Source: an uncultured Gammaproteobacteria bacterium (lineage in GTDB: Bacteria; Pseudomonadota; Gammaproteobacteria; Chromatiales; Chromatiaceae). From it: a stretch of 64,000 nucleotides of DNA. Numbering within the stretch: the first letter of the stretch is position 1; every line of letters begins with the position of its first letter. The stretch spans positions 66,920 through 130,919 of the forward strand of contig CALOBA010000038.1 of the NCBI GenBank assembly GCA_942491465.1, given 5' to 3'. Shown in pieces: positions 19,514 through 20,351 of this stretch. A model generated the notes under the pieces. That model was not told the origin of the DNA. It worked only from the letters and a program-made list of their open reading frames with translations, and ran no database searches. The position numbers and the translations under genes were made by a program.

Positions 19514-19968
19514 TCGTCGTGGTCGTGGTCGTCGGCGTCGTCGTTGTCGGCGTCGTGGTCGTTGTCGTTGTCGGCGTCGTCGTTGTCGTTGTCGTTGTCG
19601 TTGTCGGCGTCGTCGTGGTCGTGGTCGTGGTCGTGGTCGGTGTCGTTGTCGTGGTCGGTGTCGTTGTCGTTGTCGTTGTCGGCGTCGTTGTCGGCGTCGT
19701 TGTCGGCGTCGTTGTCGTTGTCGTTGTCGTTGTCGTTGTCGTTGTCGTTGTCGTTGTCGGCATCGTGTCGTTGTCGTTGTCGGCATCGTGGTCGTTGTCG
19801 TTGTCGTGGTCGTTGTCGTGGTCGGTGTCGTGTCGTGATCGTGGTCGGTGTCGTGGTCGTGGTCGTGGTCGTGGTCGTGGTCGTGGTCGTGGTCGTGGTC
19901 GTGGTCGTGGTCGTGGTCGGTATCGTTGTCATCGTCGTCGTCGTCGTCGTCGTCGCAATCGACGTCGT
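19514..19968. repeat. ~450-bp degenerate hexanucleotide tract (GTCGTT/GTCGTG/GTCGGC)n
   Basis: Single-orientation microsatellite-like tract directly upstream of the GT4 start codon. It is the complement of the GACAAC/CACGAC motif. No stop codons in any frame. Confidence 0.9.
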
Positions 19969-20077
19969 ATTCATCATCACCCCCCCCAACGACGAATCAT
20001 CGTCGCAGCCATTACTAAGGATTCAAAAAAATGAGCATATCGATTCAACCCGCGAGCCGGACAGTCTGTAGGGTGGA

Positions 20078-20351
20078 TAAGGAAGAATTCAGAAACAACG
20101 TGAACATGTCAACTCGTTGTCGTTGTCGTTGTCGTAATCGTCGTCGGATGCTCGATTTCGACAACGACAACGACAACGACTAACGACAACGACAACGACA
20201 ACGACAACGACAACGACAACGACAACGACAACGACAACGACAACGACAACGACAACGACAACGACAACGACAACGACAACGACAACGACAACGACAACGA
20301 ATCCTAGTTGTGCTATTGAGTTGTTTAACTTGTTAGTGAACCGTTACTAAG
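20078..20351 (+). mobile_element. hexanucleotide-hairpin MITE (subfamily 1), long arm 3+19 GACAAC units
   Basis: Same flanks and loop as 14084-14267. Perfect (GACAAC)19 at 20185-20298 after a GACTAAC interruption. Bracketed by TAAG (20078-20081 and 20348-20351). Confidence 0.85.

Follow-up and report, generated by a model that had tools for sequence, protein, structure and literature searches.

A degenerate hexanucleotide tract between two glycosyltransferase genes of an uncultured Chromatiaceae bacterium as a probable product of lineage-specific repeat accumulation

Why does an array of about 75 hexanucleotide units lie 7 nt ahead of a glycosyltransferase start codon, in the middle of an operon? 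The question is raised by a 64,000-nucleotide stretch of DNA from an uncultured bacterium of the family Chromatiaceae (contig CALOBA010000038.1 of the assembly GCA_942491465.1; hereafter, the window). Two genes for glycosyltransferases of the GT4 family, designated GT4b and GT4a, follow one another here on the minus strand within a surface-glycan operon and are separated by a gap of 933 nt (19508–20440). The gap contains the hexamer tract, which reads (GACNNC)n in the sense of the genes, a miniature inverted-repeat transposable element (MITE), and a repetitive extragenic palindromic (REP) doublet. We consider it likely that the gap arose as REP, MITE, and microsatellite sequences, all of them selfish or unstable repeat DNA, accumulated in this lineage at a GT4 junction that was ancestrally overlapping. 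The presence of glycan genes next to the tract is most likely incidental; all the downstream genes remain intact, so the site appears to have been simply permissive.

The empty site is seen in relatives. The objects for comparison were nine contigs carrying the closest relatives of GT4a (79%–84% identical), all from metagenome assemblies. The gene order GT4c, GT4b, GT4a, sulfotransferase is common to all of them, followed by the PAP2 and PMT_2 genes where the contig extends far enough. The stop codon of GT4b overlaps the start codon of GT4a in all nine contigs, as ATGA or GTGA, with a 44-nt overlap in one lineage, and (GACNNC)n arrays of at least four units were found in none of the nine. A tblastn search with the proteins of one of these contigs (L013) showed that the seven operon genes of the window are collinear with their relatives, each matching as one full-length segment with 80%–84% identity, and that identity does not differ between the genes upstream and downstream of the gap. 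Moreover, the overlap motif of L013, cgGTGAg, is still present at the end of GT4b in the window. Since the genes of the relatives overlap at this point without any repeats and the operon is otherwise syntenic, the 933 nt are best regarded as having been inserted, in this lineage, where two genes once overlapped. The relatives lack the tract altogether; as a regulatory device it is thus not conserved. The insertion presumably uncoupled the translation of GT4a from that of GT4b. Searches for closer strains gave 0 matches in an exact 22-mer scan of metagenome contigs, and the protein clusters at 90% identity were all singletons with no closer strain among them. A scan of species-representative genomes found nothing closer than 59%, and the relatives available as genomes reach at most 62%. 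An ATGA at 19504–19507 was considered as a relic of the ancestral junction and rejected because the ancestral GTGA is kept at the GT4b stop; the ATGA is most simply coincidental.

The composition of the gap had been described in an earlier note made from the letters of the window alone, and most of that description proved accurate (Table 1). Tandem Repeats Finder (TRF) and the spacing of anchor trinucleotides agree on a degenerate hexamer tract in a single orientation at 19514–19968, about 7 nt from position 19507. A MITE was confirmed at 20078–20351, and its (GACAAC)3+19 arm is complementary to the tract. The REP palindrome was located at 20352–20403, with a half-arm displaced to 20068–20081, and Pfam assigned both genes flanking the gap, co-oriented on the minus strand, to the GT4 family. 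The very long interrupted inverted repeat proposed in the note was also recovered, with arms of 119 nt that are 92% complementary and 426 nt apart (19637–19755 and 20182–20300) and with many alternative registers. Only the statement that repeats fill the whole gap of about 930 bp had to be narrowed: they account for about 791 nt (85%), and the gap also holds single-copy segments of 99 and 37 nt.

The MITE has the common termini and loop, the target-site duplication, and the hexamer-armed hairpin that define the hexamer-hairpin MITEs of this genome. It is bounded by TAAG direct repeats at 20078–20081 and 20348–20351 (the interval 20078–20351 includes both copies), its ends and loop have 29–35 genome BLAST matches each, and its long arm reads (GACAAC)3, GACTAAC, (GACAAC)19. 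The REP sequence forms an inverted doublet, as in REP/REPIN elements, and has 13 genome BLAST matches, the self-inverted match included. The arrangement of these parts shows that the REP doublet arrived after the GT4b stop and that the hexamer-hairpin MITE then entered the TAAG inside one REP arm. The (GACNNC)n microsatellite is a further layer in the same gap, the order being established for the REP doublet and the MITE only. Sixteen genome matches over the cut-off were obtained for PF01797 (Y1_Tnp, RAYT/IS200 type), counted irrespective of whether REP sequences of this type flank them; these Y1 transposase genes are candidate mobilisers of the REP elements. The 99-nt single-copy segment contains a C8/G8 homopolymer at 19981–19988, which in the sense direction lies upstream of the ATG-ATG heading a 161-aa open reading frame (ORF), and which is slippage-prone in its own right.

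The tract itself was recorded by TRF as a period-6 array at 19516–19955, with 74.7 copies, 82% matches, 3% indels, a score of 439, and the consensus GTCGTT. The TCG anchors, all in one orientation, extend from 19514 to about 19965, mostly at a spacing of 6 nt, with several spacings of 3 nt (half units) and exactly two of 5 nt (at about 19763 and 19828). On the minus strand, 26 GACAAC, 22 GACCAC, 7 GACGAC, 4 GACGCC, and 4 GACACC units were counted. They form a mosaic of blocks, including (GAC)7, (GACCAC)11, (GACAAC)8, three copies of GACGCC-GACAAC, (GACCAC)4, and (GACAAC)4, in which higher-order motifs such as GAC-GACGCC-(GACAAC)n and GATGCC-(GACAAC)n recur; the longest perfect period-6 run is 70 nt. 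Because the variant-unit blocks form such a mosaic with higher-order repeats, we infer that the tract is a non-coding microsatellite that grew in place, by replication slippage combined with multi-unit duplication. An origin as the hyper-expanded arm of a decayed MITE was tried and rejected as unsupported. Two sequences look like MITE ends by eye only, CCATTACTAAG near 20008 and CATGnnnnCTCGT where GT4a starts, and nhmmer searches with profiles of 23 left and 24 right MITE ends gave no match in 19400–20075 even at E ≤ 100. The tract is best classed as a free array that has neither MITE ends nor a partner close by and is made of units from the family that also builds the MITE arms; the event that seeded it has left no visible trace.

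Such arrays are not confined to this locus. TRF was run on the entire assembly (5.87 Mb in 85 contigs, 67% GC) and found 144 period-6 arrays of the AACGAC class with a total length of 9.1 kb; merging of related unit classes gave 173 (GACNNC)n arrays with a median length of 52 nt. The tract is the longest of them, 440 nt against 236 nt for the next. According to a crude codon-usage gene caller, the calls of which cover 74% of the genome as coding, 162 of the 173 arrays (94%) are intergenic or located at a gene edge. An inverted partner within 120 nt, i.e., the hairpin-MITE architecture, accompanies 136 arrays, while 37, including the tract, have none. The family is largely peculiar to this lineage: (GACAAC)5 has 436 matches in this genome, whereas among 60 other genera sampled from the family just five have any, with 14, 12, and 8 matches in three of them and 1 in two, and the remaining 55 have 0. 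Among 23 pairs of an array and a gene start no more than 60 nt apart, ten genes were annotated by Pfam. They encode an ammonium transporter, ScpA, Maf, glycogen synthase, the large subunit of NiFe hydrogenase, FtsW/RodA, HsdM, another GT4 glycosyltransferase, a ComF-like protein, and a hexapeptide-repeat acetyltransferase. Since these adjoining genes are diverse and mostly housekeeping, the arrays show no preference for genes of the surface or contingency type. The sole period-6 array in the genome exceeding the tract in length is (GGCTCC)77 (C10:38505–38966, 462 nt).

The arrays appear to change length readily. The MITE at 20082–20347 and another copy at 14084–14267 differ by 1 nt outside the long arm, while their arm lengths are 91 nt apart, which indicates that array length changes much faster than point substitutions accrue. 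The length of the tract would likewise be highly mutable. This could be compared with two Logan contigs from the run ERR9669538, which encode GT4a and GT4b proteins exactly as in the window. In ungapped alignments outside the tract, 3 differences from the window were counted for the two contigs together over about 3.3 kb (about 99.9% identity), and 2 for the GT4a contig over about 2,000 positions. The three differences, apparently synonymous and located in GT4a and GT4b, show that the Logan haplotype is distinct from that of the window. Both gap junctions were reproduced: one contig has 78 nt of the tract against the GT4a ATG, and in the other the GT4b stop is followed by the spacer, the REP doublet, and the end of the MITE. 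The GT4a contig ends within the tract (L072:1–7, window about 19579–19585) with C-GACCAC-GACGCC-(GACAAC)2, where the window has GACAAC-GAC-GACGCC-(GACAAC)2. The differing unit lies 72–78 nt upstream of the ATG, at the very end of this contig, and five 31-mers of the contig are not present in the whole assembly. This end hints at polymorphism of the tract, and the loss of 36 nt (six units) between two of the recurring GACGCC-(GACAAC)2 motifs is one event that would fit it; hypermutability of the array is plausible from these comparisons. The tract length given here is that of the assembly, of which the independent contigs cover the 78 nt at the ATG end.

The operon comprises seven genes, GT4c, GT4b, GT4a, those for a sulfotransferase, a PAP2 phosphatase, and a PMT_2/ArnT-like transferase, and one more. 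The sulfotransferase, PAP2, and PMT_2/ArnT-like genes (15177–18332) each gave single full-length tblastn segments with 82%–84% identity to the L013 proteins. A 712-aa ORF at 15123–17261 is over-extended, as tblastn splits it into overlapping PAP2 and PMT_2 genes, an arrangement matching that of the relatives. The best named homologues of GT4a belong to the genera Thioflavicoccus, Rhabdochromatium, Thiohalocapsa, and Thiorhodovibrio, which are purple sulfur bacteria of the family Chromatiaceae. By this measure, the organism is presumably one of that family rather than a host-adapted pathogen. The N-terminal 20 or so residues of GT4a vary among the relatives, whose alignments start at about residue 20, and the conserved core begins at R(I/V)AIFAATSGHSGVD. 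The 20 nt upstream of its ATG (19507) contain none of the Shine-Dalgarno motifs GGAG, GAGG, and AGGA.

Table 1. Positions of the repeat elements in the gap and of the surrounding operon genes, in window coordinates
Feature	Position	Strand	Evidence and remarks
PMT_2/ArnT-like transferase	~15177–16667	−	Intact; Pfam and tblastn
PAP2 phosphatase	~16742–17410	−	Intact; tblastn with L013 proteins
Sulfotransferase	17403–18332	−	Intact; Pfam; 1-nt overlap with GT4a
GT4a, GT4 glycosyltransferase, 391 aa	18332–19507	−	Downstream of the gap; Pfam; public gene call likewise 391 aa
Degenerate hexanucleotide array (the tract)	19514–19968	−	~75 units, (GACNNC)n in gene-sense reading; TRF, anchor spacing, and unit map
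Best tract arm of the long inverted repeat	19637–19755		Partner 20182–20300; paired in the RNA minimum-free-energy structure
Single-copy segment, 99 nt	19969–20067		Genome BLAST matches only itself; ATG/GTG/TTG cluster heading the 161-aa ORF 19504–19989
Displaced outer part of REP unit A, GTAGGGTGGATAAG	20068–20081	+	Ends in the TAAG target duplicated by the MITE; homology of two aligned MITE copies begins at TAAG
Hexamer-hairpin MITE	20082–20347	+	Left end, (GTTGTC)3 arm, loop, (GACAAC)3+19 arm, right end
Long (GACAAC)19 arm of the MITE	20182–20300		Inverted partner of the tract; TRF, inverted-repeat search, and fold
Remainder of the REP doublet (REPIN-like)	20352–20403		CGCAGCGCATCCACC, 10-nt loop, GGTGGATGCGCTGCGCTTAATCCACCC; perfect long stem in the fold
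Single-copy spacer, 37 nt	20404–20440	−	Directly after the GT4b stop (TGA 20441–20443); no other genome copy by BLAST
GT4b, GT4 glycosyltransferase, 378 aa	20441–21577	−	Full length; upstream of the gap; Pfam; 80% identical to the relative in L013
GT4c, GT4 glycosyltransferase	21574–22761	−	Pfam; 4-nt overlap with GT4b

Does the inserted DNA carry regulatory signals? A consensus scan of 19300–20700 revealed no sigma-70-like promoter and no hexamer pair on either strand, and no terminator was found on the sense (minus) strand of the gap. The suggestion of the earlier note that the repeats could act through a promoter thus found no support. Because neither a promoter nor a terminator was seen in the gap, GT4a and the later genes are most likely expressed by read-through from upstream, and the tract would now serve as an intercistronic spacer or the 5' leader of GT4a. 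The sense RNA of the gap is predicted to be strongly structured, with a minimum free energy of −398 kcal/mol compared to −304 ± 9 in shuffled sequences (z = −10.75). In the predicted fold, the GUUGUC arm of the MITE pairs with GACAAC blocks of the tract, and the REP doublet forms a perfect stem. A read-through transcript would contain a duplex of about 119 bp between these two partners, which could attract RNase III or slow ribosomes. In Rfam, nothing scored above the gathering threshold; the only matches were look-alikes of microRNA-precursor hairpins, with 32–44 bits against a gathering score of 100. Features of an invertible promoter switch were missing as well, as no promoter lies between the arms and no recombinase was recognized among six flanking genes scanned with Pfam (15123–24717; one had no family match).

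Several observations weigh against regarding the gap as a mere accumulation of repeats. The downstream genes are intact although no Shine-Dalgarno motif precedes the GT4a start; they must therefore still be expressed, either from a point within the gap or by passage through it, and this leaves room for a function. According to nhmmer, the tract is not flanked by MITE termini that would explain its seeding. The tract is about twice as long as any other array of the family and directly abuts a start codon, while, according to the crude gene calls, a start is no more than 50 nt away from just 13 of the 162 intergenic arrays. In addition, the 25 partnerless arrays between co-oriented genes, again by the crude gene calls, have GAC on the sense strand in 19 cases and on the opposite strand in 6, which pure neutrality does not predict; hairpin-type arrays have no strand bias (47 versus 45). 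The weak bias of the partnerless arrays could stem from D-rich coding regions missed by annotation or from a constraint acting on the transcripts.

Could the tract be translated? A (GACNNC)n sequence contains no stop codon in any of the six frames, so the ORFs across the tract (18332–19786, 19504–19989, and 19510–20034) are mechanical and carry no weight. The sense frames read as DN/DH/DA, TT, or RQ/RP, and each frame switches among these at the two 5-nt units. Since the residues switch there while the period persists, what is conserved is the DNA period rather than a peptide. The 161-aa ORF (19504–19989) gave only a sub-threshold low-complexity match in Pfam and had no homologue. The tract was thus rejected as coding sequence in the form of an N-terminal extension of GT4a from the ATG at 19786, of the 161-aa ORF, or of a plus-strand poly-Val ORF, since the frames are open by construction, their composition switches, and no family was matched. 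We also judge it very unlikely that the ORF at 19504–19989 acts as a translated leader, either restoring the lost coupling to GT4a or producing a peptide rich in D, N, H, and T. Its 161 open codons are inherent to the repeat and so are not evidence for a gene. Its TGA overlaps the GT4a ATG exactly (ATGA), and the relatives use a stop/start overlap at the same junction, but such an overlap is expected by chance whenever the second codon begins with A. The leader ORF begins with ATG-ATG directly after the G8 run, a possible Shine-Dalgarno-like site, GT4a has no such motif of its own, and the strand preference of the partnerless arrays points in the same direction. On the other hand, the composition of the putative peptide shifts at two 1-nt deletions, and the ORF has no homologue or family above the cut-off and is missing from the public gene call.

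An explanation of another kind attributes the length or internal order of the tract to the assembly itself, a draft of metagenome type in which a repeat may have been collapsed, expanded, or joined chimerically. The assembly has an estimated contamination of 8% and contains internal poly-G runs of 44–393 nt (C49:58114–58506, C23:1360–1462, C3:1511–1605, C32:5622–5708, and C74:72260–72403), which have the appearance of errors from sequencing or assembly and call for caution about local assembly quality; the two 5-nt units could be errors, and the Logan contig departs from the assembly 78 nt into the tract. Nevertheless, this explanation is extremely improbable: an independent assembly reproduces both junctions, no perfect run within the tract exceeds 70 nt, only 3 of 170 contig ends are close to an array, the flanks are collinear with the operon of the relatives, and other arrays of the genome have the same mosaic style. 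Phase variation was the reading favored by the earlier note. The tract, with or without the MITE arm, would be a contingency element whose slippage alters the leader structure, RNase III processing, or attenuation, and thereby GT4a, the sulfotransferase, PAP2, PMT_2, and the surface glycan. The tract does lie 7 nt ahead of GT4a, which heads a series of glycan-modification genes coupled in translation, but its 6-nt unit is outside any ORF, which excludes frame switching, as the note itself had recognized, and no promoter hexamers bracket it. The arrays are length-labile, as the MITE copies demonstrate, a near-identical population hints at a unit-order variant, and the longest perfect run reaches 70 nt; at 82% purity, however, the tract is an imperfect repeat, and slippage is less frequent in such repeats. 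Pairing with the MITE arm is possible in many registers, and the resulting duplex is very stable in the predicted fold. Contingency loci act through a frame shift or a change in the −35/−10 spacing, and here the 6-nt unit lies outside the conserved GT4 ORF, with no sigma-70-like pair. Such loci are also concentrated at surface, host-interaction, or restriction-modification genes, whereas the 173 arrays are spread genome-wide, next to diverse and mostly housekeeping genes. The likeness drawn by the note to phase-variable lipopolysaccharide (LPS) genes of host-adapted bacteria does not hold, since the nearest named homologues belong to purple sulfur bacteria, which are not host-adapted, the arrays occur throughout the genome, and the tract is missing from all the relatives compared. 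On balance, a role in phase variation is unlikely. It is also highly doubtful that the repeats form a microsatellite-built device, in which a register-shifting 119-bp RNA duplex or a RecA-invertible DNA segment works as a rheostat on four lipid A/core-modifying genes. If this were true, the locus would be a contingency locus of an undescribed type (hexamer, intercistronic, and based on an RNA duplex) in a free-living purple sulfur bacterium.

With lineage-specific accumulation of repeats as the probable origin of the gap, the locus offers a clean natural example of repeat DNA colonising a bacterial operon, for which the relatives supply the empty site. It indicates that a tightly coupled operon junction tolerates nearly 1 kb of highly structured insert, with the downstream genes surviving, and the tract marks the extreme of a lineage-specific bloom of hexanucleotide microsatellites. 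If the length of the tract affects downstream expression, the biology of contingency loci would gain a new mechanism and would reach free-living phototrophs; if it is without effect, the locus is a useful caution against inferring phase variation from a repeat adjacent to a glycosyltransferase gene. A literature search on hexanucleotide repeats in Chromatiaceae and on intergenic GACAAC tandem repeats found nothing relevant.

Comparable repeats are known from other bacteria. The short tandemly repeated repetitive (STRR) sequences of heterocystous cyanobacteria have units of 6–7 nt and form arrays of tens of copies at about a hundred or more intergenic sites; to our knowledge, they have no known function. 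As in the STRR case, short-unit arrays are scattered here through the intergenic DNA of one lineage's genome. The differences are the GACNNC hexamer, the high-GC gammaproteobacterial host, the occurrence of most arrays as paired arms of hairpin MITEs, and the location of the tract, with its approximately 75 units, inside an operon. In host-adapted bacteria, contingency loci include tetranucleotide and homopolymer tracts in LPS glycosyltransferase genes of Haemophilus and Neisseria and tetranucleotide repeats in the 5' untranslated region of Moraxella uspA2. The locus studied here resembles them in having a slippage-prone repeat beside surface-glycan glycosyltransferase genes, and the 5'-leader position has a precedent in uspA2. 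However, its unit, a multiple of three, is located outside the ORF and plays no part in promoter spacing, the array is a degenerate one, and the repeat occurs genome-wide near housekeeping genes in an apparently free-living phototroph. Intercistronic REP sequences of E. coli stabilise the upstream mRNA. Likewise, a palindromic doublet directly follows a cistron stop within an operon here, and Y1 genes of the REP-associated tyrosine transposase (RAYT) type are present in the genome; unlike in other REP/BIME (bacterial interspersed mosaic element) and REPIN systems, the doublet is split by a MITE, and a 0.45-kb microsatellite occupies the same gap. The closest counterpart is found in the genome itself. 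The element at 20082–20347 is a full member of the hexamer-hairpin MITEs, and the tract, although it lacks termini and a partner within 120 nt, is degenerate, and is 3–8 times longer than a typical arm, is built from the same unit family as the arms of these MITEs.

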